38,102 nt of DNA from a virus: IMG/VR virus record IMGVR_UViG_2585428174_000001, positions 1 to 38,102 of that record; one strand, given 5' to 3'. Made by a program: the position numbers and the translations under genes. Shown one piece after another: positions 115 to 21,069 of the stretch (the stretch's first letter is position 1; the number at the start of each line of letters is the position of its first letter). The notes below the pieces were generated by a model. The model was not told where the DNA came from and did no database searches. It was given only the letters and a program-made list of their open reading frames with translations.

Positions 115-143
115 TTGATTTTACTATATTCATTGTTTATAGT
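115..143 (+). promoter_or_regulatory. Putative sigma-A type promoter (TTGATT-N17-TATAGT)
   Basis: TTGATT at 115-120 and TATAGT at 138-143 are separated by exactly 17 nt, upstream of the 211-372 ORF. Confidence 0.45.
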
Positions 144-176
144 TTCCTACACTTTCTCACAACCACATAAAACTAG

Positions 177-195
177 TGTGGGAATAATGTGGGAA
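177..195 (+). repeat. Two direct copies of TGTGGGAA (putative integrase/Xis arm-type sites)
   Basis: TGTGGGAA occurs at 177-184 and 188-195. The same octamer occurs three times next to the other att copy (37952, 37990, 38001). Confidence 0.5.
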
Positions 196-210
196 AGTGA
201 GGTGAGAAAC

Positions 211-372
211 ATGGATAAATCTGAATTAATAATATCGCATTTAGAGAGTAAAATGCATGAACTAGATAAGAAAGCATTAGCTCTGCCAAGAAGTGAATTT
301 GATGAATATATCGAAATTGTGAACCAAGTGACATTTCTTGATGAGTTGATTGATGAGATTAAGAGGATATAA
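211..372 (+). CDS. Small helical hypothetical protein (53 aa)
   Basis: ATG at 211 is preceded by the SD GAGGTGAG. The ORF-track 85-aa version starts at a TTG that coincides with the -35 box. A hairpin follows the stop codon. Confidence 0.55.
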   Translation: MDKSELIISHLESKMHELDKKALALPRSEFDEYIEIVNQVTFLDELIDEIKRI

Positions 373-402
373 AAAGAGCCCCAGGGATGGGGCTTATCTT
401 TT
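371..402. terminator. Bidirectional intrinsic terminator shared by convergent genes
   Basis: AGCCCC (377-382) pairs with GGGGCT (389-394) around a 6-nt loop. The stem is flanked by an A-run on one side and a T-run on the other. It overlaps the stop codon of the 394-951 ORF. Confidence 0.6.
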
Positions 403-951
403 AAATTTATCTTTTATACAACTATTACTTTCATTATTGTACTTTTCGGGATGAAAAGTTTCATCTAACAACTTATTTATAAGCCAAATCAGTCTATACG
501 TGTTTATGAAAAAGTATATGATAAAATTAGCGGCGAGTATTAAAATAACAGTTCTAACCCAAGTGTTTCCAAAGTCAATTCTAATGTAGATCCCTACTAA
601 TAGCAAAATCAAAAATACGCCTTGAATAATAGAATATTTTAAAATTTTTATCACAAAATCTGTATATTTAAATCTTTTTATAAGTTCCATAATTCTTTTA
701 TCACACATAGTTAATAACAAGGTTCCTATGGTTATGTTCATGCTAAGAAGAATAGACACAAAAGTTATAATGTGAGGTAAAAGATCTTTAAAAGGTTCTA
801 TAAACCCTACATATTCTTCATTAAAAAAATAGTTTTTTATATTAATTATAATCTCCTGGTTAAAATAATATATAAGAAAACATAATATAAAAAAACACAT
901 GTTAACTACAATTGATTTAATTATTTTTCTAGCTATATGTTTTAATTTCAT
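394..951 (-). CDS. Four-TM membrane protein (185 aa), second gene of the orphan two-gene cassette
   Basis: Four hydrophobic stretches of about 17-23 aa: IVVNMCFFILCFLIYYF, HIITFVSILLSMNITIGTLLLTM, SIIQGVFLILLLVGIYI and VRTVILILAANFIIYFFINTY. It lies 35 nt downstream of the 319-aa gene, with GAGGAGG upstream. Confidence 0.75.
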   Translation of the reverse strand: MKLKHIARKIIKSIVVNMCFFILCFLIYYFNQEIIINIKNYFFNEEYVGFIEPFKDLLPHIITFVSILLSMNITIGTLLLTMCDKRIMELIKRFKYTDFVIKILKYSIIQGVFLILLLVGIYIRIDFGNTWVRTVILILAANFIIYFFINTYRLIWLINKLLDETFHPEKYNNESNSCIKDKFKR

Positions 952-986
952 TTTTTACATTATGCCTCCTCAAAATATATTTTATT

Positions 987-1946
987 CTATTCGCAAATAG
1001 GTTTTATAATTTTACCAATCCTTTTTCCTAAAGTAAGATCAAATTTAGCATTCATTTGTAATAAAATTTTATCGAATGTTTTAGGATCACCCTTGGATAC
1101 GTTTATTTCAATAGTATCATCTAACTTATAATTTATCAAATCTATTACTCGGATTTCTCCATCGTCCAACATTTTAACTTTTAATGTTGGGAATATCTTT
1201 TCATCACGCTTCATCATGTTAACTAGTTTCTTTAATCCACTTTTTTGTAAAAAAATCTGCCTAGATCTCCCTATATTGATTTCCAATTTCAAAGTTGCTC
1301 CATTGATACTTCTGGCCAAATCAGCTACATTCTTTAAGCGTTTAAATTCTTCCTGGCCATCTTCCCAAGATTCCAATTTAGACAAATCAGTTATAGTAGT
1401 TGATATGCTTTTATATTCTATTAATGAATCATCCGATATATTCTTATACCTATCATCAAATGTTATAGGAGATATTATAAATCTTTTTAATTCATTCATC
1501 TCTAAATATTGTCTGAAGAAATCAGAAATTCCTGCGAAAGAAACACTATACCTGTTGTTTTGTAAGGCTATTATCTTTGTTTTTTTATCATAAACTAGAC
1601 AAACCTCTTCTCCTACAAATTCATCGTCATCTAAATCTAAAGCATGGCCTTCACCATTACGCTTTGAAACAAAAGGTACGTCATCTCTGTTTTTCATAAA
1701 ACATAAATTCCATCTTTCTGTTACTTCATTATATTCAATTCTTTTTAATTGTACACACTCTTTACCAATGTCTTTATTTTTATCATCAGTGTTTTGAACA
1801 CTATTTTCGTTTGCAAATAATATCCTTTCTTCTATGTTCAAGGTTTGCAATGTTTTAAACAAATCATCCAAATCATAAATTCTTTCGTTCTTCTCTCCCC
1901 CACTCATTGGATAATAATAATATACTTTCATATTTTTTATACTCAT
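987..1946 (-). CDS. Soluble 319-aa protein of unknown function, first gene of the orphan two-gene cassette
   Basis: Long ORF with the SD AGGGGA 5 nt upstream of the ATG. I saw no Walker, HExxH, HNH or PD-(D/E)XK motif. Acidic patch DLDDDEF. Confidence 0.75.
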   Translation of the reverse strand: MSIKNMKVYYYYPMSGGEKNERIYDLDDLFKTLQTLNIEERILFANENSVQNTDDKNKDIGKECVQLKRIEYNEVTERWNLCFMKNRDDVPFVSKRNGEGHALDLDDDEFVGEEVCLVYDKKTKIIALQNNRYSVSFAGISDFFRQYLEMNELKRFIISPITFDDRYKNISDDSLIEYKSISTTITDLSKLESWEDGQEEFKRLKNVADLARSINGATLKLEINIGRSRQIFLQKSGLKKLVNMMKRDEKIFPTLKVKMLDDGEIRVIDLINYKLDDTIEINVSKGDPKTFDKILLQMNAKFDLTLGKRIGKIIKPICE

Positions 1947-1952
1947 GCTATT

Positions 1953-1995
1953 CCCCTATTCTTGCACTCATTCTTTTATTACTGTATAATAGGGG
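1953..1995 (-). promoter_or_regulatory. Leader hairpin able to sequester the SD of the 319-aa gene
   Basis: CCCCTATT (1953-1960, containing the SD complement) is the exact reverse complement of AATAGGGG (1988-1995). Confidence 0.35.
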
Positions 1996-2067
1996 TAACA
2001 AAACAATGAGTAACTTTTGTATTTAAACCACTGTTGATTTAGCCGTCATAGTGGTTTATTATTTTTA

Positions 2068-2095
2068 AGTATATCACGTAGTATAACTATTTCAA
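2068..2095 (-). promoter_or_regulatory. Secondary candidate promoter (TTGAAA-N16-TGaTATACT) for the cassette
   Basis: On the minus strand, the -35 is at 2090-2095 and an extended -10 at 2068-2073. Confidence 0.3.
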
Positions 2096-2210
2096 CACTT
2101 TCGACAAAACTTGACAAACAGTATTTTATTTCCATATTTTTATAAAAAACATCAATGGACATTATAATAATTTTAATTCTCCATCAATGATTTTTATTAT
2201 TATTGTAATT

Positions 2211-2234
2211 ATTAATCAATTCTCATTGATTAAT
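2211..2234. promoter_or_regulatory. Perfect 10-4-10 palindrome ATTAATCAAT-tctc-ATTGATTAAT (putative operator)
   Basis: Exact inverted repeat, positioned at the predicted transcription start of the 2237-2265 promoter. Confidence 0.5.
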
Positions 2235-2236
2235 TA

Positions 2237-2265
2237 ATTATATTATGGTATATTTTGATTATCAA
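2237..2265 (-). promoter_or_regulatory. Strong candidate promoter (TTGATA-N17-TATAAT) for the two-gene cassette
   Basis: On the minus strand, the -35 is at 2260-2265 and the -10 at 2237-2242, with 17-nt spacing. Confidence 0.5.
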
Positions 2266-2284
2266 TGGTCCTCCCTTGACTACC

Positions 2285-2330: not shown

Positions 2331-2363
2331 AGAAAAAATAAGGGTACCCAAACGGATACCCTT
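2331..2363 (-). terminator. Intrinsic terminator ending the late/lysis operon
   Basis: A 10-bp stem forms between 2340-2349 and 2354-2363 with a 4-nt loop. On the minus strand it is followed by a U-run (AUUUUUU). Confidence 0.75.
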
Positions 2364-2625: not shown

Positions 2626-3264
2626 TTATTTTACATTTTTATTTACATATGTTTTAAGATCCTGTACTGCTTTTAAATCTACTTGCAGTTTGTCTATCTC
2701 CTTATATAAATTAGCCATTACACTATTTATGCTGCATTCAACAGCATAAAGTTGTTTATTCAGTAGTTCTTTATCCATCTTATTTTCACCTCCTTTTAAT
2801 CTAGTTTTAAACTCATTCCACTTCGCCCAGTTACTAGCACTAAAAGACTTAGGGCATAGCTTAAAACTTGCATCATAATGTCTAACAACTCTTTCAATAG
2901 GTATATCTAATTCATTCATTAACTGCTTTGTTAAATCTAAAGTATTTTGAATGGTTTTTTCTGATGGCTGCATATTACTTTCCAAACACATCTCTATTGA
3001 AATGCTATTACTGTTTGTAATACCATTTCTTCCCCTACCATCACCTACAGCCCACGAATAATTGTTGTTATAATCTATGATCTGGATTACGTTGTTTGAA
3101 TCAACAAAAAAATCTGCACTAGAGTTCCTGTTTCCACCGGCAAAATAATCTCTGTTGTTTTGAGCACTTGAAATAGCTCCTACATCATGAATTACAATGT
3201 ATTTTATGGAATTGTTTCTTTTAGAAAAATTGTACTTTATTAATTGTTTTTTTATTGGTATCAC
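2626..3264 (-). CDS. Endolysin, N-acetylmuramoyl-L-alanine amidase (Amidase_2/PGRP type)
   Basis: Motifs IVIHDVG, SISIEMC and VVRHYD..KLCP. The C-terminal ~50 aa look coiled-coil rather than like a recognisable wall-binding domain. Confidence 0.85.
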   Translation of the reverse strand: MIPIKKQLIKYNFSKRNNSIKYIVIHDVGAISSAQNNRDYFAGGNRNSSADFFVDSNNVIQIIDYNNNYSWAVGDGRGRNGITNSNSISIEMCLESNMQPSEKTIQNTLDLTKQLMNELDIPIERVVRHYDASFKLCPKSFSASNWAKWNEFKTRLKGGENKMDKELLNKQLYAVECSINSVMANLYKEIDKLQVDLKAVQDLKTYVNKNVK

Positions 3265-3285: not shown

Positions 3286-3528
3286 TTATTTAAAGATATT
3301 ATTTTGCACTGCATAAAAAAAGAATCCTATAAAAGACCCTATCAGTAACCCTATAAACCACTTCATAACTGAAGTCAGGGCCCTAAGGTTTTCACATAAA
3401 TTCTTAAGTTCACTTTTTAATGTAGCGCTGTCCTGTTCTAATTTATCTAATCTGTCAGCATGGTTATTTAAACGCTTGTCATGTACCTCAAGCTGATGTT
3501 CAACTAATTCATCGTTCATATTACACAT
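3286..3528 (-). CDS. xhlA: XhlA-like lysis-associated membrane protein
   Basis: N-terminal coiled coil plus a single C-terminal TM segment (WFIGLLIGSFIGFFFYAV), located just upstream of the endolysin. The likely start is the ATG at 3519, downstream of AGAAAGGA. Confidence 0.55.
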   Translation of the reverse strand: MCNMNDELVEHQLEVHDKRLNNHADRLDKLEQDSATLKSELKNLCENLRALTSVMKWFIGLLIGSFIGFFFYAVQNNIFK

Positions 3529-3590: not shown

Positions 3591-6536
3591 TTAATTTATA
3601 TCCCTAACTGTAATAGTAGGTTGTATTGCCGTATTGACTTGCACTGTGCCATTCTCAAATTTCTTTAATTCTGTTAGTTGCGGAGTTGTTACTGGTGTAG
3701 CTAATTCATAAAGCACTGTTACATTGTTAGCTTGTAACCAAGACTTAAATGACGGGATATAGGTTGAAGTTGTGCCATCTACGAAATTATATTGAGTCAA
3801 CTTAGACTTTAATATCTGTATTTGAAAATTGCCAGTGCTGTAATGTATATTTATACATTCGATACTTGGACTACTTATCGCCCCAACTGTAAATTTGTCA
3901 GATATAACTACACCTGCATTTTTAGCACCTATGTTTAAATCAAATCTTAGTGCTTCGCCATAAGTATTAAAATATACCCAATTTTCACTACCATTTAGCA
4001 CAGTTTTACCAATTCTTTGTGTAAACACATTATCCTTTATTCCATCCTTAATATCGCCCACTTTACGCAATACTAAATGCACTGTAATCCTATCTTGTAA
4101 CACCCCATTACTACTTACAATTTCTATCTTATTTCCTTCTGCCTCTCCCACACTCTCTAGGGTACAACCTGTCTCAAACACGTTTGTATACGTTCCATTA
4201 TCACGTTTGTATATCGTATTGCCTTCCAAATCTATAGCAATCATTTTTTGTATTTCTTGTTGCTCGCCTACTGTCAAAATATCCATTAAATCACAATAAG
4301 AGCTTCCATCCTTGCTACCTCCCGCAAAGTACCACTTATCTCTATTCACCGCAATTGCCATTTGCCCGCCTCTTCCTTCTGGTAATTCATTGCATTTAGT
4401 TAATACATTGTTATACTTAAATATTTCAGATCCAATCAAAAGATAAATGTTGCCATTATAAGTCCATGCACCATTAAACCATGCCTCAGTTGCAGAACTT
4501 GGTTTTAATTGTTCCCATGTGTTAGTTGTCACGTTGTATTTTAACCATACTTTATTACCATTAATGCCAAAAACATATATAGAACCATTAATTGTAGCGC
4601 AATAGCAACGTGTAGCTGCAACCGGCATATTTGCACCACTACTCCATGTATTTGTTGCAATATCATATATTTCTAATTTGTCATACAATGTTCCACGTCT
4701 ATTGTCTCCGCCGCATACATATATTTTCCCATTTAAAACGCACATACCAAGTAATGTTCGTGAAGTAGGCATATTTGCGCCAACACTCCACGTATTAGTT
4801 GCTATATCATAAATTTTTAAGCTTGATAATGTATTGCCACCGCTAGCCGAACCACCAACAACATACATTTTCCCGCCATGAAGCACAGCCTTAGTTTCAG
4901 CACGTTGCCCTCCGCTCGCTCCACTACTCCATGTATTTGTTACAATATCATATATTTCCATACTAGAAACATAATCACTGCTATACCCACCATCTACATA
5001 TATTTTATTATTGTAAACAACACAATGAGCTCCATACCTTCCATATTGCATTGTTTTGCCTTGTTCCCAAGCTGGCTTAACCGTAGGCATGTACGGACTT
5101 ACTCCGCCAATTACTTTTTGCCCAAATAGAGCCACTTGTACTTGGTTTGCGTCAATTGTTATAGTAGTACTGGATATTAATCTTACTGATAACTTATGCT
5201 TTTCATTTGCCTGCACCTTAGTTATTGCGTAATTAAAACTTAAAGTACTAAAATTTACTACATTTGTCTTAGGTCTTAATGCACACAGTATATTGTCAAC
5301 GTAAAACTTGCATTCAACTGTCGCTGTAGCATTAATTTGTATGGTCACAAATAACAATAAGTTGGAGCTTGAAGATGTTTCATATTCTAATGTGCAAATT
5401 TCCGTTGAAACATTACTCCCTACTTGAACAGCGGTTTCATTCGTATATGTGTACATTCCCATATTATTTTCTTGCGTTTGAGTTTCTACGTATTGCTCTT
5501 GAGCTGTCTTATTCTCTATTGCTTTTTTGCTAATTTTAGCTTGTGTAGTAGCTTTTAAACCACCACAGTACCTAATTTTATTATTAGTAACAATGCTTAA
5601 ATGTGCTACGTCTTTTTCGTCATACACTTTAATTTTGTCACACACTTCCATGGCAAAATCGCCCTGCCATTCTGCGTTATATCCTATATACTGTGTAGCT
5701 TTATAGTAGTGTAAAGTATTAACTGCAATAGCCTCCAAGTATCCCTCGCCTATGCCATTCAGTAATGCTATTTCCTGGTTTAATACATTGCCTGTGCTAT
5801 CACCTACTTCATAGCCATTTACAACCACACCTGTAATGTTACTAAAACTATTGCTTACTGTAGTTTTGTAGCTATTGTAGTTAGTAATTTCAACGTCAGT
5901 ATCGTTTAGTACATATATATCCACTAGTCCACTTAAGCACACTAGGAACCCACCGGCTATCGTTGCAACATCTGTTAAAACTTGCCTAAATGAACCCTGT
6001 GGTTTTTGTGGAATCATTAAATCATTAAAACTGTAAGTGCTATTTTTAAAGTTATACCCAAACTGTATGCCTAGTGTCTTTTCCATGTCTGCTACAATAG
6101 CATTAACTTTTGCTGGGAATACCAATTCACTAGAATATTTACTGTCCAGTATGTCCATTGCAAGCTTATCAAATCCTTCTAGCTTTATACTCTTACCAGT
6201 TTCTTTATACTCTTCTATCCAAAAATCGTTGTAGAAGATTTCTTCCCATTTTCCGTCTGCTAGCTGTATCATAAAGTATAGCTTTATCATCTTATCTTCA
6301 AAGTTTATGTTGTCATATTTATTGTCATGATTACTCAGAGAAATAGAAATAGGGCTTGCTATTCCACCACCAATCGCAAAATTTTCACTGGCCAGTATAG
6401 CGTTGTCTACTTCAATTGTTTCTATATTATCATCTGTTATTGTCAAAGTTGTTGTACCTTGGACGATAATTTTTGCACCAAGAATCCTTGAAGGACTTCT
6501 TATTGCTGTTTTATATGCAGCGCTTACATTCTTCAT
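3591..6536 (-). CDS. Tail-tip / receptor-binding protein (Tal-like N-terminus, central Kelch-repeat beta-propeller)
   Basis: 981 aa, located after the TMP and a Dit-like gene. About 6 repeats match the pattern G(G/K)IYV.GG....L..YD..TNTWS. Confidence 0.75.
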   Translation of the reverse strand: MKNVSAAYKTAIRSPSRILGAKIIVQGTTTLTITDDNIETIEVDNAILASENFAIGGGIASPISISLSNHDNKYDNINFEDKMIKLYFMIQLADGKWEEIFYNDFWIEEYKETGKSIKLEGFDKLAMDILDSKYSSELVFPAKVNAIVADMEKTLGIQFGYNFKNSTYSFNDLMIPQKPQGSFRQVLTDVATIAGGFLVCLSGLVDIYVLNDTDVEITNYNSYKTTVSNSFSNITGVVVNGYEVGDSTGNVLNQEIALLNGIGEGYLEAIAVNTLHYYKATQYIGYNAEWQGDFAMEVCDKIKVYDEKDVAHLSIVTNNKIRYCGGLKATTQAKISKKAIENKTAQEQYVETQTQENNMGMYTYTNETAVQVGSNVSTEICTLEYETSSSSNLLLFVTIQINATATVECKFYVDNILCALRPKTNVVNFSTLSFNYAITKVQANEKHKLSVRLISSTTITIDANQVQVALFGQKVIGGVSPYMPTVKPAWEQGKTMQYGRYGAHCVVYNNKIYVDGGYSSDYVSSMEIYDIVTNTWSSGASGGQRAETKAVLHGGKMYVVGGSASGGNTLSSLKIYDIATNTWSVGANMPTSRTLLGMCVLNGKIYVCGGDNRRGTLYDKLEIYDIATNTWSSGANMPVAATRCYCATINGSIYVFGINGNKVWLKYNVTTNTWEQLKPSSATEAWFNGAWTYNGNIYLLIGSEIFKYNNVLTKCNELPEGRGGQMAIAVNRDKWYFAGGSKDGSSYCDLMDILTVGEQQEIQKMIAIDLEGNTIYKRDNGTYTNVFETGCTLESVGEAEGNKIEIVSSNGVLQDRITVHLVLRKVGDIKDGIKDNVFTQRIGKTVLNGSENWVYFNTYGEALRFDLNIGAKNAGVVISDKFTVGAISSPSIECINIHYSTGNFQIQILKSKLTQYNFVDGTTSTYIPSFKSWLQANNVTVLYELATPVTTPQLTELKKFENGTVQVNTAIQPTITVRDIN

Positions 6537-6540
6537 TTTG

Positions 6541-6876
6541 CTACCTCTCTATAAAATTCATCTTTAAGTTTTGCCATTTTCCCATGTATAACATTGGAGC
6601 TGTTCTTGTTCCTACATAAAATGTTTTCGTGATTGTTGCACCTTCAGCTGGATCAGGATATGCGACTTCGAAAAACACATTTTGAACCGCTTTCAAAAGT
6701 ATGCTTATCTCGCCATCCTCAAGCGGTGGCCATTCGCACGTAAGCTTTCTTTTAACTGCAATTCTGTCCCTTAACATCTGCCCTCTTGTATTTCTTCCAC
6801 TCTCTCCGTCTATGTCTTCAAAGTCCACTACAAAAACTTTAGGAGCAGCTATTGCTACTCCATTTATTTTAAGCAT
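6541..6876 (-). CDS. Small distal-tail (Dit-like) component
   Basis: 111 aa, located between the tape measure and the tail-tip protein. The call is by position only. Confidence 0.4.
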   Translation of the reverse strand: MLKINGVAIAAPKVFVVDFEDIDGESGRNTRGQMLRDRIAVKRKLTCEWPPLEDGEISILLKAVQNVFFEVAYPDPAEGATITKTFYVGTRTAPMLYMGKWQNLKMNFIER

Positions 6877-6891
6877 ATAACCACTCCTTTT

Positions 6892-9381
6892 TTATATCGG
6901 CAATAATACCTTGCCTGTTTTCTTTTCTAATTTTCTAAAGCTTTTTATTATAACATCACCCATTTTATTAGAATCCATGTATAGCTCTACAGTCAAATCT
7001 CCACCGCTATTGTTGCTATTCCCTTGCCCTTCCATTTTGGAGAAGAAAGCACCTAATGCTTGTGTCATTACCTCCATCATTTTTCCTTCTGGTGCAACTA
7101 TTTCACCTTGGGTTTTGTTATCTCCAATCATGGCAAGTTGCGGTTGATTAGCTTTAACATAACCGCCTGTTGCAAGTTTAGGAATATTTACTTTAGCCAT
7201 TTCACTTAAATTAAAACCAAACTTTTTACCACCTATAACTGGTATCCATTCAGGTACATTAAAACTCAACTTATTTAATGCCCTTATCATTAAGTTAATA
7301 CCACTTATTACTCCATTAACCATAATATTAATGCCACCAATTATAGAGTTTACTACTCCTTTAACTATGTTCCATATGCCACTGAAAACACTGCTAAACA
7401 CAAATTTAACAGCATTTAATCCAGTGGTGACTACTGTTTTTACTATATTTATTGCACCGCTTATAGTATTTTTAATACCGTTCCATGCACTACTCGTAAC
7501 AGTACTTATGCCATTCCATATACCGCAAATTACAGATTTTATAGTATTAAATACTGTTGAGGTAATATTTTTAATAGCATTCCATACTGCTATTATTACA
7601 TTTTTAATAGTATTAACTATTGCGCTTATTGTGTTTTTGATTCCTTCCCACACAGCTCCAGCTATAACCTTTACTTCATCCCAATGTTTAACAAGAAGCA
7701 CACCAATTGCAATCACTGCACCTATTGCTAAAGTCACAAGTCCAATAGGGCTTGTGAGGAATGCTACTGCTGCTCCAAAGGCTGTTGTAACTCCTGTTGC
7801 TATGCCACATATTAAATTCCAACCACCTATTACTAACTTAACTATACCTAGAGCCACTCCAAAGCTTTCTATTGCCAGAGTTATAGCATCAACTATTGTA
7901 GTATTTTCACTCATCCAATTTCCAATGCTAGTCAATGCATCAGCAATCCAATTAAGCACATCCACAATTATGCCACCTGTCCAACTAGCAATAGGTCCTA
8001 AAAAGTTATCCCATAATAAATCTGCAGACCTTAAAAAAGATTCTAATATAGGATTAAGGAAATCCATAGCTCCAGCTAGTAAATTAAAAAAAGCTGGTAA
8101 GGCATCTTCTATAGTCCATTTTGCTAAAGGCCCTAGTATATCAGTTAAAAACCATTTTAAAGCCTGCCCTATTGTATTTACTATTGGTTCCACAGATTTC
8201 TTAAGTCTATCAAAGCTATTAACTAGAGGAGCAAAATCAATAGATTTAAACCATTTTTGCAACTCTCCCATGAATCCACCCATAACACCATCCATAGAAG
8301 ATGTGTCTAGCTTAGGAACTACATTAACTGGTATATCTGTTATGCCTCCACCTACAGCACCGCCTCCAATGTCTCCACTGCTATCATCTGTAGTGGGCTT
8401 AGTTATAGTGTTTATCTCATCAAAGCCCATTAGAGCCTTTTGAAGTTGCTTTGCTTTCTTAGCTGCTTTCCCTGTAGACTTAGCAATGTTATCTGTTGCC
8501 CCGCTTGCACTAGTTGCTGCACTAGCTACTTGTTGCATGCTCGTAGCTGGGTTGTCTGCTTTCTTACCTGTTATACCTTCTACGAAGCTTTTAAATACAT
8601 TAGCTAGTTGTATTAGCTTGCCCATGATGGTGTTTATAACTTTAACTACTGGAGTTAATATTGCTATAAATCCTTGTCCTAAGCTCGCTTTTAAGCTATC
8701 AAATTGTAGCTTCAGTATTCTAGTTTGATTCGCCCAACTATCGCTTGTCCTAGAGAAATCTCCACTAGCTAATGCTAATTGTTGTTGAACAAAAGCAAAT
8801 CTCAAAGCGACCTTTTCTTGCTCCGTCATATCCTTGGTAACTTTATTAAATCCGTTACTTAAAGCAAATTGATCTAGTGCTGTTTGTGTCATAACTACAC
8901 CTAAATCTTTTAAACTTTCAGTCTCACCTGTAAATACAGATTTAAGTTTTGTATACGCTTCGTCTTGACTTGTATTGTAAAAAGAAGCCACATCTCCACT
9001 AAGTCCTGTTAATGCCGTAGACATATCATAGGCGGCCTTTTCATTGAATCCAAATGCTTTAGACATAGCTCCAAAGGTACCAACATATTTTTTAGTCATA
9101 GTTTCAGATAAACCAAAATTCATTGCCGCACCTTTAGCAAAATCATCTACTTGTTTAGTCATACTACTAAATGTAACATCAACTACATTCTGTACTTCTG
9201 CTAAGTCAGAGCCTAAGTCTAAGCATTGCTTTCCAAAGTTAATTAAACCTTTAATAGCAAACACTCCAGCCAATGTTCCAGCTGCTTTCTTTGCAAGGCT
9301 TGTAATGCTATTCATCTGTTTGTCAAAACCATTACGATTAACAACAAGATCTAACCCTATTTGACCTACACTTTCAGCCAT
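6892..9381 (-). CDS. Tail tape measure protein
   Basis: 829 aa, helical, with a hydrophobic Gly/Ala-rich core and periodic W-N-x-I-K-N repeats. It follows the chaperone pair. Confidence 0.9.
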   Translation of the reverse strand: MAESVGQIGLDLVVNRNGFDKQMNSITSLAKKAAGTLAGVFAIKGLINFGKQCLDLGSDLAEVQNVVDVTFSSMTKQVDDFAKGAAMNFGLSETMTKKYVGTFGAMSKAFGFNEKAAYDMSTALTGLSGDVASFYNTSQDEAYTKLKSVFTGETESLKDLGVVMTQTALDQFALSNGFNKVTKDMTEQEKVALRFAFVQQQLALASGDFSRTSDSWANQTRILKLQFDSLKASLGQGFIAILTPVVKVINTIMGKLIQLANVFKSFVEGITGKKADNPATSMQQVASAATSASGATDNIAKSTGKAAKKAKQLQKALMGFDEINTITKPTTDDSSGDIGGGAVGGGITDIPVNVVPKLDTSSMDGVMGGFMGELQKWFKSIDFAPLVNSFDRLKKSVEPIVNTIGQALKWFLTDILGPLAKWTIEDALPAFFNLLAGAMDFLNPILESFLRSADLLWDNFLGPIASWTGGIIVDVLNWIADALTSIGNWMSENTTIVDAITLAIESFGVALGIVKLVIGGWNLICGIATGVTTAFGAAVAFLTSPIGLVTLAIGAVIAIGVLLVKHWDEVKVIAGAVWEGIKNTISAIVNTIKNVIIAVWNAIKNITSTVFNTIKSVICGIWNGISTVTSSAWNGIKNTISGAINIVKTVVTTGLNAVKFVFSSVFSGIWNIVKGVVNSIIGGINIMVNGVISGINLMIRALNKLSFNVPEWIPVIGGKKFGFNLSEMAKVNIPKLATGGYVKANQPQLAMIGDNKTQGEIVAPEGKMMEVMTQALGAFFSKMEGQGNSNNSGGDLTVELYMDSNKMGDVIIKSFRKLEKKTGKVLLPI

Positions 9382-9399
9382 ATTCTACCTCCTTTCTTC

Positions 9400-9434
9400 A
9401 AAAATAAAAGCACCTAGAAATTAATCTAAGTGCT
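9400..9434 (-). terminator. Terminator-like hairpin between the chaperone genes and the tape measure gene
   Basis: A 9-bp stem (9409-9417 with 9426-9434) and an 8-nt loop. On the minus strand it is followed by UUUAUUUUU. Confidence 0.4.
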
Positions 9435-9791
9435 CATTGTTCTAAACATATTTTCAAAGTTTTTCATTGCTTGATCATAGTCTTTACTATTAATATTTTC
9501 AATGTTTCTTTTTCTCCATTTATTTCTTATCTGTTTTTGTTCTGATGTGAACTCCTTAATTATTTTAGGGTCCTTTTCTGCTCTTATGCTTACTATTTTA
9601 CCTAGTGCAGTCTTTTCATTTATTCCAGATAATAAAGTACAAAACTCACCCCAAGACATATCATTTTCACGTCTTAATCTTATGCCATATTGTTCAGCAA
9701 AAGAAGATTCTATTAGGTCATAATCCTCTATAATGTCATACCACTCTTCACTATTTTGTTGCATTTTGAAATCGACGCTCTGCCTCTTCAT
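9426..9791 (-). CDS. Tail assembly chaperone, downstream frame (Gp15-like), probably made as a frameshift extension
   Basis: Overlaps the upstream chaperone ORF by 41 nt in the +1 frame. There is no SD before its ATG. Motif EWYDII.DYDL...F..QYGIRL. Confidence 0.6.
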   Translation of the reverse strand: MKRQSVDFKMQQNSEEWYDIIEDYDLIESSFAEQYGIRLRRENDMSWGEFCTLLSGINEKTALGKIVSIRAEKDPKIIKEFTSEQKQIRNKWRKRNIENINSKDYDQAMKNFENMFRTMST

Positions 9792-10062
9792 ATGTTATAT
9801 CTGATACTCCAGCCATCATTCCAGTAAATATCACTTTGTAATCACTTAGAGATAAATTCATTCCCTCAATTTCCTTAAAAGCTTTTTCGCCCAAAATCAT
9901 TCTTATAGCATTATCCATCATTTCAATATCATTAACGTTACCATGAAAAAGTTGATTTACTTTTAACATTGTATTTTTAGAGTTGTCTATTTCATATTCT
10001 TTCCCTTCAGCTATTTTAATAATTGGTTTTGTGTCTGTTAACTTGCTAGTAATATCTATCAT
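9751..10062 (-). CDS. Tail assembly chaperone (gpG-like)
   Basis: Located between the major tail and tape measure genes. The start is taken at the ATG at 10062, after GAAAGGTGGA. The longer ORF-track start overlaps the neighbouring gene. Confidence 0.6.
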   Translation of the reverse strand: MIDITSKLTDTKPIIKIAEGKEYEIDNSKNTMLKVNQLFHGNVNDIEMMDNAIRMILGEKAFKEIEGMNLSLSDYKVIFTGMMAGVSDITYEEAERRFQNATK

Positions 10063-10081
10063 TATTATTCCACCTTTCATA

Positions 10082-10110
10082 TTAAAAAAGCACCCTATTT
10101 CTAGGATGCT
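10082..10110 (-). terminator. Intrinsic terminator of the tail-module moron
   Basis: On the minus strand, a 9-bp stem AGCAUCCUA/UAGGGUGCU with a GAAA loop is followed by UUUUUUAAU. Confidence 0.7.
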
Positions 10111-10606
10111 ACTTCTTACCTGCTTTCCATTTGTGTCCACACTTTAAACAAGTTACTTCTATTTTGTTTTTACCCATTGCTCCTGTTACCAACCCTAAAC
10201 CTGGTGTAATAGCAGCTCCCAAAATACCTTTCCCTAAGCTAAAGCCTTTCTTATTAGCTGTTATTTGTGTAGAGCCACATTTAGGACAATGTATCTTATC
10301 ATCATCCTCTTTAACATCTATTATAGTTATGTTCCTATTATTGAAGTAATTCAATATTTCTTCTAGCTTGTCATTATCTTTTTTATATATGATAATACTG
10401 TTTTTATCCAAAGTTGCTGTATTCAAATCTTTTACGTCTCTACCACTTGTGAAGGTACAGAAAGTTATAAAACCTTGTTTAGTAGCAGTTGGAGCTTGAT
10501 ATTTTATTTCTGTTATATTATCAACGTCAATATTAAGCTTTCCAATCATAATTTCATTATCTGCTATTATAGCTTTTTTAAATAAATACTTTAATTCAAT
10601 GTACAT
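10109..10606 (-). CDS. Moron protein: N-terminal beta-rich domain plus a C-terminal zinc ribbon split by a Gly-zipper hydrophobic segment
   Basis: CPKC...GKGILGAAITPGLGLVTGAMG...CLKC. ATG at 10606 follows AAAGGGGTG. The gene has its own promoter and terminator. Confidence 0.7.
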   Translation of the reverse strand: MYIELKYLFKKAIIADNEIMIGKLNIDVDNITEIKYQAPTATKQGFITFCTFTSGRDVKDLNTATLDKNSIIIYKKDNDKLEEILNYFNNRNITIIDVKEDDDKIHCPKCGSTQITANKKGFSLGKGILGAAITPGLGLVTGAMGKNKIEVTCLKCGHKWKAGKK

Positions 10607-10638
10607 GATCCACACCCCTTTTAGATACTCTTTTATAT

Positions 10639-10667
10639 ATTATATCACTTTAAGTATGTATCATGAA
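10639..10667 (-). promoter_or_regulatory. Candidate promoter of the moron (TTCATG-N17-TGaTATAAT)
   Basis: On the minus strand, the -35 is at 10662-10667 and an extended -10 at 10639-10644. Confidence 0.5.
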
Positions 10668-10674
10668 CATTATT

Positions 10675-11124
10675 TTAAACCCCTGGTGTAACTGTAGGCT
10701 TTCCATCACTCATAACTTCAAATTCTAATCCTTCTACGTTTGTTGAGTCTCCCCCAGCACTAGAAATATTAACTATACAATTAAAAGTTACTTTTGTGCC
10801 TGTTGGGAACTCCCACTCAAACTTTGTAGATAAATCTCTTCCTGTTTTAAACATCAACCCAGCTACATAATCATTTCCAGCATCACCTACACACCTTTTT
10901 CCACTTAATGAAATACTGAATCCTTTACCTGTTGCAAGCCTAGAAATCCATCCCTCAGCTGTCATTGGTGTCCACTCTTCAACGTTTGTATCAATACTAA
11001 CACTAAATGTCTCTAGTTCTGCAATAGTTACCATATCTGTAGGTTCAACACTTGCTAATCCTTTTGTGCCTATTTTAAACTTATTATTAAACACTGGATA
11101 AACTCCAGTTGTTATAGTTGCCAT
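10675..11124 (-). CDS. Major tail protein
   Basis: 149 aa, in the conserved position after the tail terminator gene and before the chaperones. Confidence 0.7.
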   Translation of the reverse strand: MATITTGVYPVFNNKFKIGTKGLASVEPTDMVTIAELETFSVSIDTNVEEWTPMTAEGWISRLATGKGFSISLSGKRCVGDAGNDYVAGLMFKTGRDLSTKFEWEFPTGTKVTFNCIVNISSAGGDSTNVEGLEFEVMSDGKPTVTPGV

Positions 11125-11531
11125 TATTCATTGCTCCTTTCATAGTAACATTTAAGCTCGATAACCCTCTCATAGATATTTTTTTCATCTGTTCCGACAT
11201 CTATAGGTTCATTATTTAAAAGCTCAATATAGTTAATTCTATGGCCATTAATAACCACAGAATTCTGTTTCAAAATCTCTTCATACAGTTCATAACTGAA
11301 TTCTTCCGTTTCTCTTGCATTTGTATTCCAATGTATAAGAATAGAAATCCCTTTAACCTCATATGTGGTATTTTCTAAGCCTCCTAGTGCTATTCTTGGA
11401 GGACTTGTATTCTTTAATTGATAAACCCCTATAGACTTATCTTTCTTGTTATCTAGCTTGCCAATGTAGTAATTATCAGCCTTATTATTAAGGGTTTTAA
11501 GCCAATCACGTATATTTGATAGTCCTAACAA
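11124..11531 (-). CDS. Tail terminator / tail completion protein (SPP1 gp17-like position)
   Basis: Synteny only. Confidence 0.45.
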   Translation of the reverse strand: MLGLSNIRDWLKTLNNKADNYYIGKLDNKKDKSIGVYQLKNTSPPRIALGGLENTTYEVKGISILIHWNTNARETEEFSYELYEEILKQNSVVINGHRINYIELLNNEPIDVGTDEKNIYERVIELKCYYERSNE

Positions 11532-11909
11532 TTAAACACCTCCAATTCGCTTGTAGAATGCTTTAAATGCTTTCTTGCAAAAGTCTTTTTTATTTCCATC
11601 AATCCAATCTTGATACCATTTCCCTTTTGCATTAGGATTTTCTTCAGTGCTAAAATTGTACTCTGGATGATAATATAATCTTCTTGCATAAGGTGTGGAG
11701 CTTACTAAAGTTACTTTACATTTATTGCTTTCAGTATAATCTACAAAAGTACTTTCATTCTGTAGATTACCACTTTTAAATGGTATTACTTGCGCTTGGA
11801 GTACATCTGTATGCAATGCCTCACCCGTCATTTCTAAGGCCTGCGTTTGTGCATGTGTAAGTTGTTTAATTCTGATTTTATTTATTGTTATTTTACTATT
11901 TACATGCAT
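11532..11909 (-). CDS. HK97 gp10-family head-tail joining protein
   Basis: Synteny, plus an N-terminal pattern LEMTGEALHTDV..AQVIPFKSGNLQNS typical of the family. Confidence 0.5.
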   Translation of the reverse strand: MHVNSKITINKIRIKQLTHAQTQALEMTGEALHTDVLQAQVIPFKSGNLQNESTFVDYTESNKCKVTLVSSTPYARRLYYHPEYNFSTEENPNAKGKWYQDWIDGNKKDFCKKAFKAFYKRIGGV

Positions 11910-12247
11910 TAAACCAACTCCAGTCTTGTATAGTTTACAGTGCCATCTGGGTTACGTGCTTTTTCACCTCTGTAAATGTTTCTATTAACTCCATTAACAA
12001 TTACAGTACCATTGCTTAATGTAGGTAATGAAGAGGCTATATCACCAGGAATTAAGGCAGTTCCTTCTATTTGTATAAGCTGTTGTTCTGCAGTTAAAAC
12101 CTTCTTAGCTTTATCTTGATAATTACATAGGGTGGATATACTAAGTGCCTCTAATGGCCCACCATCTTCACTTAACCCATCTTGATATATCTTTATCTGT
12201 ATTGGAGTTTTACAAAATTTCTTAGGTACTAAACAAGGAAATTTCAC
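11909..12247 (-). CDS. Head closure / stopper protein (SPP1 gp16-like position)
   Basis: Synteny. Its start overlaps the neighbouring stop codon. Confidence 0.45.
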   Translation of the reverse strand: MKFPCLVPKKFCKTPIQIKIYQDGLSEDGGPLEALSISTLCNYQDKAKKVLTAEQQLIQIEGTALIPGDIASSLPTLSNGTVIVNGVNRNIYRGEKARNPDGTVNYTRLELV

Positions 12248-12248
12248 T

Positions 12249-12623
12249 TTACCACCTCACATTTCTACAAGTTAATCCTGTCTGTGCTAGTGTCTCATAC
12301 AGTTCTGTCGGAATTGCTACACCTTTCATAAGTTTCACATTCCACGTATCACCAAAGTTCATAGATACACCGTTTATACTGTAACTAGATAACACATTTT
12401 CAATAAGTTCAGCATTCTCATATTCAAAGTTGGCTAACTCACAATTAACCTCTTTGATAATTTCTTGTTGAAAAGGAGTAAGGTTATCAAACCCCACTCC
12501 TCTAATTCTTCCATAAGTTAAACTGTCAATGTGTCTACTTGCTTTATTTAATGCTCTGTTTAAATCTTTATCTGGAATATCACTATAATTAGCCTTGTAT
12601 TCCTCTAAAGTTATATAAGCCAT
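12249..12623 (-). CDS. Head-tail connector/adaptor (gp6/gp15-like)
   Basis: Synteny after the capsid gene, with a typical N-terminus ITLEEYKANY... Confidence 0.55.
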   Translation of the reverse strand: MAYITLEEYKANYSDIPDKDLNRALNKASRHIDSLTYGRIRGVGFDNLTPFQQEIIKEVNCELANFEYENAELIENVLSSYSINGVSMNFGDTWNVKLMKGVAIPTELYETLAQTGLTCRNVRW

Positions 12624-12631
12624 AGTAACAC

Positions 12632-12928
12632 CTACTCTCCATATTCTACATCTTTTATTTTCTTAAGAATGCCTTCTTGGCTAGTAGATTTACCTAGATC
12701 TATTCCTCTTTCTTCTGCATATGTTTTTAACTCTTCAATTGTCATTTTATCAATAGCTGTCTCTTCTTCAACAATTTCTTCTTCAGCTTTTTCTTCTTCA
12801 ACTTCATATCCATGTTTCTTGAACCAATCAACAAGAGTAGGGTTTTCTGTTTCTGCGATACCATTACAAAAAGCCACACTAGCACTAATACCAGTATAGC
12901 TTTTGTTTGGTGCTATTATTTTAGCCAT
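12632..12928 (-). CDS. Hypothetical head-associated protein with an acidic linker and a C-terminal Rho_N/SAP-like motif
   Basis: MTIEELKTYAEERGIDLGKSTS... motif, located directly after the capsid gene. Confidence 0.4.
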   Translation of the reverse strand: MAKIIAPNKSYTGISASVAFCNGIAETENPTLVDWFKKHGYEVEEEKAEEEIVEEETAIDKMTIEELKTYAEERGIDLGKSTSQEGILKKIKDVEYGE

Positions 12929-12938
12929 AATGTCCCTC

Positions 12939-13904
12939 CTATTTTACCTTTATATTTCTAAATACTGCAGCCGCTTTACTTGCCTTTAATGCTAATGCTG
13001 CTATCATTTCTACTTCACCATTCTTTACTGCCCCGCTAGTTGAAAAGTCTGGCAACCATGTCTTTATTGGTGCTTGCCCCGCCATAGATACAGCGTGCAA
13101 CCCATCAAGGCCTAATCTAGCAACATAAAGAGAAGTTGCCCCCGAAGTGCCATCTGTTTTAACAACATCTTCATTACTTCCAGCCTTAGTTCCTAAATCC
13201 ACGAATGGAATAGTTCCGTAGCTTTCCACTTGCTGTCCAAAGTCATTTTTAGTTGTTTGGTACATGCTTGCCCTTCTTGCACATGCCCTCAATTTAGCTA
13301 TAAGTTTAGAGTTACCAGCTATAAAAGTAGGAGTACCATCTAAGCCGGTCATAAATTCATCTAGCATATCTAAAAATGCCATGTAGTTAGACGTAATTGC
13401 CGCACTTGTAGATAAATCTATAACTACCTTATCAGCACCATTGTTATATTCTGTTGATGATCCTGTTAATGCTTTTTCAAGTCCATCAAATGCTTGTGCA
13501 TCTACTGCACTGTCACCATTGATGAAAGTATCATTAAATAGTGCCTTTGCTGCTTTAATCTTCTGTGCCTGCTGTAATTCTACCTCTGATACAATTCCGC
13601 CCATATTGGCAATAACCCTATCAATCTGATAGCTACCACCAAATACCTTAAGAGTAGTATGGAATTGCTCTTTAGTAACTTCTCCTGGTGTGTATTCTTT
13701 GTTAATCTCTCTGAATCCAGCTGTTGGTTGTGTTTTTAATCTAGTATAGGAGTATGTCATTGTTGCTCCTCCACCTACTGGGGACACAACATCATCAAAT
13801 GTTAGATTGTCTAGTAAAAAACTAGACTTTCTAAATTCATCAATAACCCCTATTTGTAAATCATCCTGTACGTTTTTACTTGCCTCTGCTAATGTAACTG
13901 CCAT
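12939..13904 (-). CDS. Major capsid protein
   Basis: 321 aa, immediately downstream of the scaffold gene. Called by position and size. Confidence 0.75.
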   Translation of the reverse strand: MAVTLAEASKNVQDDLQIGVIDEFRKSSFLLDNLTFDDVVSPVGGGATMTYSYTRLKTQPTAGFREINKEYTPGEVTKEQFHTTLKVFGGSYQIDRVIANMGGIVSEVELQQAQKIKAAKALFNDTFINGDSAVDAQAFDGLEKALTGSSTEYNNGADKVVIDLSTSAAITSNYMAFLDMLDEFMTGLDGTPTFIAGNSKLIAKLRACARRASMYQTTKNDFGQQVESYGTIPFVDLGTKAGSNEDVVKTDGTSGATSLYVARLGLDGLHAVSMAGQAPIKTWLPDFSTSGAVKNGEVEMIAALALKASKAAAVFRNIKVK

Positions 13905-13921
13905 ATTATATCACCTTTCCT

Positions 13922-14506
13922 TTATTGGTTTATTTGTCCTTGAAGTTTAGCTGCTATTGCGTCTTTCATACTTACATTTGTTCCTTGTGGCTTAGGATTT
14001 CCACCATCTGCACCAACTTTAAATCCCGGTTGTGGTGTTGGTTCTGGACTATTTTCAGGTTTAAATAAAAAGCCTTTGCTCTCCTTTAAACTTTTAAGTT
14101 GTTCATCTAAGCCTGTTATCTTGCCATCATCATTTAGTATTAACTTAGACTTATCAAACAAGTCAGCAACTAAATCTGTATCCATAGCCTTATCTGCAAT
14201 AGCCATCTTAATAGCATTGCTTACTTGTAAATCCTTAAGCTTTGCTTGGTACTCTATGTCCTTAGCCTTGTTGTCCTCTTGTAATGTCTCTATCTGCTTT
14301 TTAAGAGCCTCACCGTCAACCTTTTTAAGGTCTTCTAATTGAGTGTTTCTTTCAGCAATAGTCTTCTCTAATTCTTTTTTACTGTTGTTGACTTCATCAA
14401 ATCGTGTCTTAGGAATATAAGTTTCTAATTCTTTCTTACTCTCCGCCTCTGCTTTTGTTGCTAAATCTTCTGTAAGTCCTAATGCTATAAATTGTTGTTT
14501 ATTCAT
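13922..14506 (-). CDS. Capsid scaffolding protein (GP20-like)
   Basis: Highly charged coiled-coil protein upstream of the capsid gene. ATG at 14506 follows AAAGGA; the ORF track starts 9 nt earlier. Confidence 0.7.
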   Translation of the reverse strand: MNKQQFIALGLTEDLATKAEAESKKELETYIPKTRFDEVNNSKKELEKTIAERNTQLEDLKKVDGEALKKQIETLQEDNKAKDIEYQAKLKDLQVSNAIKMAIADKAMDTDLVADLFDKSKLILNDDGKITGLDEQLKSLKESKGFLFKPENSPEPTPQPGFKVGADGGNPKPQGTNVSMKDAIAAKLQGQINQ

Positions 14507-14630
14507 ATTTACCATCCTTTCAAATTCATTTTTTAGCCCGGTTCAGTCCGGTACCATTTGTCTTATTAGTTAACGCCCATAATACCAAAATGGCGAAAAT
14601 AAAAAGCCTTATTTAATAAGACTTTCTTTT

Positions 14631-14780
14631 TTAAACAATACATATTAAAATTCCTAATAGTAAATTATATATAGCATTTGTAATATTCCCCTTATTCTTT
14701 TCTCTTGATGCTTCAATCAATGCGTATATTACGTACATTCTTGTGATAATGAGGTATGTAATCTTAATCACCATGTACAC
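14631..14780 (-). CDS. Small hydrophobic protein (49 aa, below ORF-track cutoff)
   Basis: AAGGAGG lies 5 nt before the GTG at 14780. There are two hydrophobic segments, and a hairpin plus U-run follows the stop codon. Confidence 0.45.
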   Translation of the reverse strand: MYMVIKITYLIITRMYVIYALIEASREKNKGNITNAIYNLLLGILICIV

Positions 14781-14826
14781 TTAAACCTCCTTTCTTAATT
14801 TTGAGCATAATAAAAGCACCTACTTT

Positions 14827-14973
14827 TTATTTAGTAAGTGCTTTATACTCTTGTACTATCTCTCCGCATTTTAATGAACTCATAAACTGTTCATATTCTT
14901 CCTTTACCCACTGTGGAGAATTCTCTTTAATTTTAAGACCATCATCATCATAATAATAATAATCCGTATCCAT
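14827..14973 (-). CDS. Small acidic protein (48 aa) directly downstream of the MuF-metallopeptidase gene
   Basis: ATG at 14973 lies 2 nt downstream of the MuF stop codon (14978-14980). The sequence begins MDTDYYYYDDDG... A terminator hairpin overlaps its 3' end. Confidence 0.45.
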   Translation of the reverse strand: MDTDYYYYDDDGLKIKENSPQWVKEEYEQFMSSLKCGEIVQEYKALTK

Positions 14974-14977
14974 AAAT

Positions 14978-16762: not shown

Positions 16763-16770
16763 TTTATCAC

Positions 16771-18411: not shown

Positions 18412-18619
18412 TATTTACCAGCTCCTGAATAATCTTTAGCTCTACTTTTACAATTTCGTAATCCTTGTTGCACTTCCTAATATTGAAATTATGTTCTGCA
18501 TCTTCTTTATCACCAAATATAATCGCTTTTTCATGGGAAGTTCTTTGCTTCAATGGTGAATATCTATGATCAGTTCCGAATACCCATTTTTTAGTTTTCT
18601 TATTTCTAATAGCGTACAT
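18398..18619 (-). CDS. Hypothetical small protein
   Basis: ATG at 18619 follows TAGGAGTTGG. Located between TerL and the portal gene. Confidence 0.55.
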   Translation of the reverse strand: MYAIRNKKTKKWVFGTDHRYSPLKQRTSHEKAIIFGDKEDAEHNFNIRKCNKDYEIVKVELKIIQELVNNELV

Positions 18620-18620
18620 A

Positions 18621-19976: not shown

Positions 19977-20421
19977 TTAATTGCGAAAGTATCGAATCAA
20001 GCTTTTCGGTTGAATTTACTGTGGCCGTTACATCTGTCTCTACCTTATCTACAAATAATCTATATCTCTTTCCTAGGAGCTCAGCTGCTTTTATTCTATC
20101 CTTGGCACTTATTTCTTTTTTTATAACTCTTGCTGAAGAATATCCATCACCTTCACCCTCAACTACAACAACATCTTCCACGATTTTCCCTCTCATAGCT
20201 GCTGTAAGATGTTTTAATACTTCGCTAGCATTGGCAATACGTTCATCTTCAAGTTGTTTCATTCTTTCATCAATATAAGATTTTATACTAAGTTTTTCTA
20301 AGTTCTGACTACCTTGTACATGTGGTTGTTTATACCCTGCTTGCTTTGCTGCTTCAGTGGCATTGCCTGTTTCTATATAATAATCACAGAATGCCATTTG
20401 CTTTGGTGTTAACTTAGCCAC
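19957..20421 (-). CDS. terS: Terminase small subunit
   Basis: N-terminus LTPKQMAFCDYYIETGNATEAAKQAGY is typical of Terminase_2. GTG start follows AAGGAGGTGG. Confidence 0.85.
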   Translation of the reverse strand: MAKLTPKQMAFCDYYIETGNATEAAKQAGYKQPHVQGSQNLEKLSIKSYIDERMKQLEDERIANASEVLKHLTAAMRGKIVEDVVVVEGEGDGYSSARVIKKEISAKDRIKAAELLGKRYRLFVDKVETDVTATVNSTEKLDSILSQLNGDEDE

Positions 20422-20653: not shown

Positions 20654-20699
20654 GTTCTCACCTTCCTTATAAAATAAAAAGAACCCTGTTAAGAGTTCT

Positions 20700-21036: not shown

Positions 21037-21069
21037 AAAATAAAAAAGAACCTTAAATATTAAGATTCT
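21037..21069 (-). terminator. Intrinsic terminator after the 187-aa gene
   Basis: On the minus strand, a 10-bp stem AGAAUCUUAA/UUAAGGUUCU with a 3-nt loop is followed by UUUUUAUUUU. Confidence 0.65.

Follow-up and report, generated by a model that had tools for sequence, protein, structure and literature searches.

The window analysed here is the entire 38,102-bp contig of Hathewaya proteolytica DSM 3090. Close to one end it carries a cassette of two genes, SAMN02745248_02394 and SAMN02745248_02393 (hereafter gene 1 and gene 2), which encode a soluble protein and a four-transmembrane (TM) protein, and whose relation to the exclusion genes rexA and rexB of phage lambda is the subject of this analysis. 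The two open reading frames (ORFs) and the terminators that enclose them are located as follows.

2340-2363, minus strand: intrinsic terminator (10-pair stem with 5 GC pairs, T-run) that ends the lysis/late operon upstream of the cassette
987-1946, minus strand: gene 1, an ORF of 319 amino acids (aa), soluble
394-951, minus strand: gene 2, an ORF of 185 aa, four-TM
376-395, both strands: terminator-like hairpin that closes gene 2 and a convergent ORF at 115-372

A first-pass annotation, made from the letters of the DNA alone, had described this pair as an orphan cassette in an insulated moron slot and as a candidate undescribed defence or exclusion system. Of the checks that it proposed, a PADLOC scan, AlphaFold modelling followed by Foldseek, and a survey of the homologues for conserved co-occurrence and location are reported below. 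As to the layout, the ORF listing returned the coordinates and lengths that it gave for both genes, together with the gap of 35 nucleotides (nt; 952-986) that separates them in the same orientation. Terminators on both sides of the cassette were recovered (2363-2340 on the minus strand and 376-395 on both strands) in a scan that yielded 3 sites per 2.7 kb against 0.8 expected. The AT-richness that had been judged by eye also holds, with a GC content of 23.1% in gene 2 and 28.9% in gene 1 vs 34.5% in the structural block (3591-20421) and 33.1% in the whole window. Likewise, gene 1 is soluble as described, with zero hydrophobic TM segments.

Gene 1 belongs to the Pfam family DUF6731 (PF20505; E-value 9.9e-57, 193.1 bits vs a cutoff of 27), whose model is also matched by 26/26 relatives, and it further matches phrog_10865 (E 2.6e-47). 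In a word-seeded search the DUF6731 family is small, comprising 25 clusters from Clostridium species, B. subtilis, Leptospira and metagenomes. Membership of gene 1 in a curated Pfam family, as well as the existence of homologues for both genes, contradicts the label of an orphan. In the PADLOC and NCBIfam scans of the gene 1 and gene 2 proteins no model matched, the RexA and RexB models of PADLOC included, and the megablast comparison of the cassette region with phage records gave no match.

The AlphaFold2 model of gene 1 (26 sequences) has a predicted local distance difference test score (pLDDT) of 79.4 and a predicted template-modelling score (pTM) of 0.76. Foldseek comparison of this model with ~350,000 PDB chains placed lambda RexA (8twq_B) on top, with E 6.4e-6, probability 1.00 and 333 aligned columns, and RexA was the sole PDB match with E < 1e-3. 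The next matches were E. coli RdgC (E 1.9e-3; PDB 2OWL) and then several chains of CENP-N, which we take to be the human counterpart of CHL4. The paper on the RexA structure (Adams 2024) defines a fold group of RexA, RdgC, IML3 and CHL4; with RexA, RdgC and CENP-N among the top matches, the list recovers this group and not one isolated protein. The model begins with a beta-sheet region, has four strands together with helices in its centre and ends in a long helix. This order of elements fits the published RexA topology, in which a globular domain is split by the insertion of a four-stranded one and a long helix forms the C-terminus. Gene 1 is thus predicted to be a two-domain protein of the RexA/RdgC fold and a distant relative of lambda RexA.

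A second line of evidence comes from profile-profile comparison. Alignment with hhalign of 33 DUF6731 proteins against four RexA proteins (from lambda and from Klebsiella, Hafnia and Salmonella phages) gave a score of 33.0 (P-value 7.4e-4) over 199 columns that are collinear from the N-terminus, and the best-supported stretch contains a motif common to both families, L-x-D-D-E-x-x-G. Block-shuffled RexA alignments scored 17.2 +/- 2.7 with a maximum of 24.7, so that 0/25 reached 33.0, and the reversed alignment scored 14.8. The RexA signal rose only with alignments on both sides. These scores point to a remote sequence similarity between gene 1 and RexA, weak but above the null. Since structure and profile comparison place gene 1 as a distant relative of lambda RexA, the cassette is best classed with the RexAB-type systems that are already known, and the epithet 'undescribed' is to be dropped.

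The membrane partner is less readily classified. The four TM helices and the basic C-terminal tail that had been described for gene 2 were found again, with hydrophobic segments at residues 10-28, 61-79, 107-125 and 131-149 (8-26, 49-67, 84-102 and 116-134 in lambda RexB), and the positive-inside charge distribution suggests an N-in/C-in topology. Its AlphaFold2 model (pLDDT 79.9) shows a membrane bundle of four helices; loop 1 contains a short amphipathic helix, and another short helix lies in the central loop. Gene 2 belongs to no Pfam family, and exhaustive phmmer search of 1.84 billion representatives retrieved only 22 proteins at E <= 1e-3. The best-conserved part of this family extends from the end of TM2 into the central basic loop (T..T.L.SMCDKRI.KLIK). 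All partners tested hit phrog_17119 (gene 2, 3.3e-4; the partner in Aeribacillus phage AP45, 1e-5; in B. subtilis, 3.6e-5; in Leptospira, 5.1e-7), as lambda RexB weakly does (E 0.035), and this phrog is the only bridge, a weak one, between the gene 2 family and RexB. The RexB models of Pfam (PF15968) and PADLOC do not match gene 2, and there is no solved RexB structure for comparison. Gene 2 is RexB-like in size, topology and position; common descent with RexB is not shown. As a separate observation, the B. subtilis partner (L006:6906-7463) weakly matches the PADLOC candidates PDC-M18B (E 0.0018) and PDC-M53B (E 0.062); the uncharacterised PADLOC candidates may already include related membrane partners.

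The association of the two genes is invariant in the loci examined. In 17/17 distinct loci, the window included, the DUF6731 gene is followed on the same strand by a multi-TM ORF of 145-207 aa, with the soluble gene first and the membrane gene second in every case and a spacing that ranges from a short overlap to 35 nt, which answers the earlier question of conserved co-occurrence. The pair was found in Clostridia, Bacillus subtilis, Aeribacillus phage AP45, Leptospira and IMG/VR contigs. In the BFVD fold comparison one uncultured phage, Siphoviridae sp. ctylc9, supplies the top match of gene 1 and also that of gene 2.

On this evidence, the two genes probably make up a divergent phage-exclusion (abortive infection) module of the RexAB type, which a Hathewaya proteolytica prophage carries as a moron. 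Gene 1 would be a cytoplasmic protein of the RexA/RdgC fold, probably a dimer and possibly DNA-binding, that serves as the infection sensor and detects a product or a DNA-protein intermediate of the superinfecting phage. Gene 2, a small four-TM inner-membrane protein, would be the effector. Gene 1 would engage it, probably at the conserved basic loop between TM2 and TM3, and the engaged gene 2 would compromise membrane potential or integrity, presumably by depolarisation, so that macromolecular synthesis would halt and the infection would be aborted. Models in which a sensor activates a four-TM effector in this way exist for lambda, Sbash, CarolAnn and P. putida RexABpp. The evidence reaches as far as fold, topology, pairing and context, and we infer every further step of this mechanism.

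Several observations weigh against the assignment. For gene 1, the RexA models of Pfam (PF15969) and PADLOC gave no match at E <= 1, and the same models score lambda RexA, used as a positive control, at 1e-96 and 1e-108, respectively. The DUF6731 profile retrieved nothing from the PDB sequences at E <= 10; the hhalign probability for DUF6731 and RexA is 26%, and alignment against the single lambda RexA sequence is too weak (E 0.14). A possible bridge through DUF4747 (PF15931), suggested by precomputed co-hits in two proteins only (P0023 and P0025), was not reproduced in our own scan, in which 0/26 DUF6731 members matched this family at E <= 1. The global TM-scores between the gene 1 model and RexA are 0.36/0.40 with a root-mean-square deviation of 15.6 A, a low agreement that is to be expected if the domains are oriented differently, RexA having been crystallised in a closed form with hinged domains. 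For the partners, the hhalign comparison with RexB (E 0.032, 56 columns centred on the TM2-loop feature) scored 18.5 vs a null of 13.8 +/- 3.2 and was equalled by 4/25 shuffles; the comparison with the single lambda RexB sequence was again too weak (E 0.16), RexB is absent from the BFVD fold matches of the gene 2 model, and four-TM topology is common. Three of the homologous pairs lie upstream of terminase genes, where lysogenic expression is less obvious. Finally, the literature searched for DUF6731/PF20505 held no paper and no experiment on any DUF6731 protein, and even in lambda exclusion has been questioned as the primary role of Rex (Adams 2024).

On another reading, the similarity to RexA would be convergent or a false positive, and the cassette would represent a new membrane-acting defence system unrelated to the described ones, as the first-pass annotation had it. 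The silence of all PADLOC models, the low global TM-score and a partner whose relation to RexB is not demonstrable speak for such a reading. Yet it has to account for a Foldseek probability of 1.00 and for RexA, RdgC and CENP-N matches that span a published fold group, for an independent profile-profile signal above all nulls, and for a gene order, protein sizes and topology that are those of Rex, and we consider it quite unlikely.

The main rival to the proposed mechanism accepts the fold and reverses the roles. As in Butters, and functionally in Kiwa, the membrane protein would anchor, sequester or sense, and the DNA-binding protein of the RexA/RdgC fold would be the effector, clamping phage DNA as it enters or replicates, or blocking recombination-dependent replication. 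In Butters the RexA-like gp30 suffices to block infection, an effect that the four-TM gp31 attenuates, and in Kiwa the DNA-binding partner is controlled by the four-TM protein. The conservation of the two proteins agrees with this as well, gene 1 being far better conserved (25 invariant positions in its alignment A1 vs 1 in the gene 2 alignment A3), which suits an effector with a fixed target. However, the membrane protein is the effector in 4/5 described Rex-like systems, and gene 2 is most strongly conserved in a cytoplasmic loop, a pattern that agrees just as well with an interface for activation. We regard the reversed roles as possible, though clearly less probable than the RexAB-type module as formulated above; on the order of sensor and effector as such nothing in the present evidence discriminates.

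The genomic neighbourhoods bear on whether the pair serves defence at all. The loci can be grouped by position as follows (L numbers designate loci).

After the lysin in prophages: the window; phage phiCp-A (L001); Clostridium UBA1056 (L003); C. fallax (L004/L012); L026/L027
In the lysogeny module of a C. botulinum prophage, between ImmA and XRE repressors: L011/L020-22
Near a recombinase or integrase at the end of a contig or element: L013; L016
Directly upstream of terminase genes: Aeribacillus phage AP45 (L002); L014; L015
In chromosomal or unassigned islands: a Clostridiaceae metagenome-assembled genome (MAG; L005); B. subtilis (L006); Leptospira (L009); L023; C. senegalense (L024); a JGI contig

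The location survey thus found pairs both in prophages and beside known defence genes. The pair of the Clostridiaceae MAG adjoins MzaB (3e-82) and Vsr, that of the C. botulinum prophage (L011/L020) lies two genes away from PD-Lambda-1 (1e-88), and the Leptospira pair is embedded in an array of toxin-antitoxin pairs with PDC-S47 and PDC-S61. Taken together with the conserved pairing and the fold of gene 1, the defence neighbours sustain the earlier notion of an insulated moron with a soluble-plus-membrane defence or exclusion pair, apart from its claim to be undescribed.

These positions can also be read in favour of a role that is not primarily defensive, in which gene 1 would be a modulator of prophage development or recombination, comparable to RexA acting on the CI-Cro switch or to the control of RecA by RdgC, and would be tuned by gene 2. 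Lambda RexA biases the lysis-lysogeny switch without RexB, exclusion being possibly a by-product (Adams 2024), and the C. botulinum pair does sit within a lysogeny module. In the window, however, the cassette lies at the opposite prophage end from the repressor, the pairs in the non-prophage chromosomal islands of toxin-antitoxin and defence genes of Leptospira, the Clostridiaceae MAG and B. subtilis have no switch to modulate, and the obligatory membrane partner is left unexplained, which makes a modulator an unlikely though not far-fetched primary function.

Three further features of these loci were recorded. In the C. botulinum prophage (L011/L020:4232-9934) the DUF6731 pair, a 275-aa multi-TM protein without annotation and a PD-Lambda-1-type T5orf172 protein lie between an ImmA-like protease and XRE repressors, and this lysogeny module has the appearance of a compact hotspot of prophage defence. 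The PD-Lambda-1 gene of L022 is cut short and encodes 200 aa. In the IMG/VR contig L013 (2919-3818) the DUF6731 gene is apparently disrupted: a 169-aa C-terminal ORF is left, tblastn matches cover residues 1-303, and the four-TM partner is intact.

The DNA upstream of gene 1 contains two further elements of the cassette.

2068-2268, minus strand: candidate promoter/operator region, from consensus matches only
1947-2062, minus strand: structured leader upstream of gene 1, with arms of hairpin 1 at 2024-2032/2050-2058 and of hairpin 2 at 1966-1982/1995-2011

The AT-rich region that had been noted here, with a length put at ~420 nt, is present at 25.7% GC and measures 393 nt (1947-2339). Of the promoter and operator-like elements ascribed to it, both kinds of site can be found: promoter-like sites at 2265-2237 (11/12 consensus positions; TTGATA-17-TATAAT) and 2095-2068 (10/12, with TG), and, as operator-like repeats, four CATTGAT-type motifs in 2151-2268, a 32-nt tandem repeat at 2150-2213 (72% identity) and a perfect 10-nt palindrome at 2211-2234. 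The promoter matches themselves show no enrichment relative to shuffles of the AT-rich DNA (24 vs 18.4 +/- 4.3), and the overlap of the repeats with the best of them suggests a candidate operator. With a candidate promoter region of its own and flanking terminators, the cassette is predicted to be active in the lysogen without depending on late-gene transcription.

The leader is conserved at the nucleotide level in the closest subfamily, which comprises the window and three other loci (L003:5880-6008, L024:2962-3094 and L026:1490-1618), despite only ~50% identity between the proteins. For these four loci RNAalifold predicts two hairpins with 30 pairs, 7 of which have compensatory changes, and the fold of the window leader has a z-score of -3.5; an Rfam search of the leader returned no known RNA family. 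The Shine-Dalgarno sequence of gene 1 is predicted to be paired with a probability of 1.0 in the window, 0.93 in L003, 0.55 in L026 and ~0.4 in L024, with a CCCCU-type stretch of the hairpin 2 loop as its partner. Complementarity between this loop and the Shine-Dalgarno sequence is marginally above shuffles (22, 44 and 25 of 500 in three related sequences).

At the junction between the genes, the Shine-Dalgarno sequence of gene 2, GAGGAGG (965-971, minus strand), is spaced for an ATG-TAA start-stop (955-960), and the ATG of gene 2 follows in frame 9 nt downstream; among the junctions compared in 12 loci, five close relatives have normal spacing. The arrangement may go back to a nonsense mutation in codon 2 that is followed by re-initiation, or it may control dosage. 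Rex systems are reported to be sensitive to the stoichiometry of A and B (January 2026 paper), and by analogy the leader and the start-stop might set the dosage, which is speculation.

A leader that sequesters the ribosome-binding site of gene 1 and sets its dosage also forms part of an alternative view of the whole family. Here the pairs of DUF6731 and phrog_17119 proteins would constitute a separate and wide branch, present in Clostridia, Bacilli, Spirochaetes and their phages, that shares with Rex only the DNA-clamp fold of RexA/RdgC; the partner would be unrelated to RexB, and a membrane-tethered clamp would be released onto phage DNA, converging on a Kiwa-like logic. We give this composite view a minor but real chance.

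The remainder of the window agrees with the prophage setting proposed for the cassette, and the neighbouring features are listed below.

3286-3528: XhlA, upstream of the cassette
2626-3264: Amidase_2 endolysin, upstream of the cassette
2369-2617: holin-like ORF, upstream of the cassette
115-372, plus strand: convergent ORF of 85 aa between the cassette and att, sharing the bidirectional terminator

These lysis genes adjoin the cassette, and an XRE repressor, an ImmA/IrrE-like protease and a tyrosine integrase are found at the opposite end of the contig. The contig ends carry an exact 69-nt direct repeat (1-69 = 38034-38102) that includes the 3' part of a transfer RNA (tRNA), although ARAGORN found no complete tRNA in the repeat. 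The repeat could be the att core, in which case the contig is a complete prophage with att at both ends, or it could be an overlap across att that arose when the excised circular form was assembled; the att site that had been claimed is thus supported. The layout from cassette to att is likewise as described, except for the additional 85-aa ORF in between, which has no Pfam or PADLOC match and, judged by eye, a coiled-coil look. Elsewhere in the prophage, a tRNA-Asn gene (21754-21828, minus strand) lies beside another very AT-rich stretch (20501-21500; GC 0.23-0.26) with a 187-aa ORF (21060-21623), which may be a moron slot.

The vicinity of XhlA, amidase and the holin-like ORF could make the pair a holin/antiholin-like accessory function of the adjacent lysis module. 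A strong terminator separates the two, however, and in most other loci the pair is far from lysis genes. The combination of a four-TM protein with a ~300-aa DNA-binding protein in a membrane-associated defence concept likewise recalls Kiwa, to which the first-pass annotation had drawn an analogy. This analogy fails on several grounds: no PADLOC KwaA/KwaB or Pfam DUF4868 model matched, no KwaB occurs among the top 50 PDB fold matches of gene 1, the architecture of KwaB (a Rossmann-like domain with DUF4868) is a different fold, and kwaA lies upstream of kwaB, the reverse of the gene order seen here. A Kiwa-type system or an accessory lysis function is thus most improbable, and both can be regarded as effectively refuted.

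The assignment to the RexAB-type kind provides a testable functional hypothesis for DUF6731 and for a family of membrane proteins without annotation. If it is true, this kind of system extends to Firmicutes and Spirochaetes. It also exposes a blind spot of the defence finders, which miss the DUF6731 pairs despite having models for RexA and RexB. The homologous pair of B. subtilis offers a genetically tractable entry to the RexA-like trigger and to the activation of its four-TM partner. As to novelty, the cassette is predicted to be a divergent RexAB-type pair, neither Kiwa nor categorically new.

Among the described systems, lambda RexA/RexB (PF15969/PF15968; PDB 8TWQ) is the closest in organization, with a soluble gene of ~300 aa followed at tight spacing by a small four-TM gene in a prophage, with RexA as the best structural match of gene 1, and with an alike layout of the four TM helices. 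Unlike lambda, the cassette genes fall outside the RexA and RexB family models and the host is a Firmicute; gene 2 exceeds RexB by ~40 aa, has a longer basic tail and carries in loop 1 an amphipathic helix that RexB lacks; and, whereas rex is co-transcribed with the repressor, the cassette is preceded by a candidate promoter region of its own and lies at the lysis/att end. RdgC (PDB 2OWL), the second structural match of gene 1, belongs to the same fold group as RexA and differs in being a stand-alone chromosomal gene without a membrane partner, and a reading of gene 1 as a stand-alone RdgC was rejected; here the membrane partner is present in every locus examined.

A divergent cytoplasmic RexA-like protein next to a four-TM partner is likewise found in Sbash gp30/gp31, CarolAnn gp44/gp43, Butters gp30/gp31 and P. 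putida RexABpp. The Sbash pair, like the cassette, adjoins virion genes and has its own promoter, which in the cassette is a candidate, and RexBpp resembles gene 2 in lacking detectable homology to RexB. The actinobacteriophage systems and RexABpp were recognised through weak HHpred or structural similarity and not by BLAST, and Sbash 30/31, CarolAnn 43/44 and RexABpp were assigned on the same type of evidence and later validated. They differ from the cassette in the phylum of the host and in having experimental phenotypes, the cassette being known from sequence and models. A further difference is that the actinobacteriophage RexA-like proteins are linked to DUF4747, which is reported in RexA, Sbash gp30 and CarolAnn gp44, whereas gene 1 is a DUF6731 protein in which DUF4747 was not detected. 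The cassette has the architecture and the predicted fold of RexAB and lies outside both of its sequence families; it is thus a distant member of this kind and not a pair of RexA/RexB orthologues. Only five Rex-like systems have been described, with hosts in Proteobacteria or Actinobacteria (January 2026 paper), and a much larger family with RexAB-type organization has been predicted by Gentile et al.

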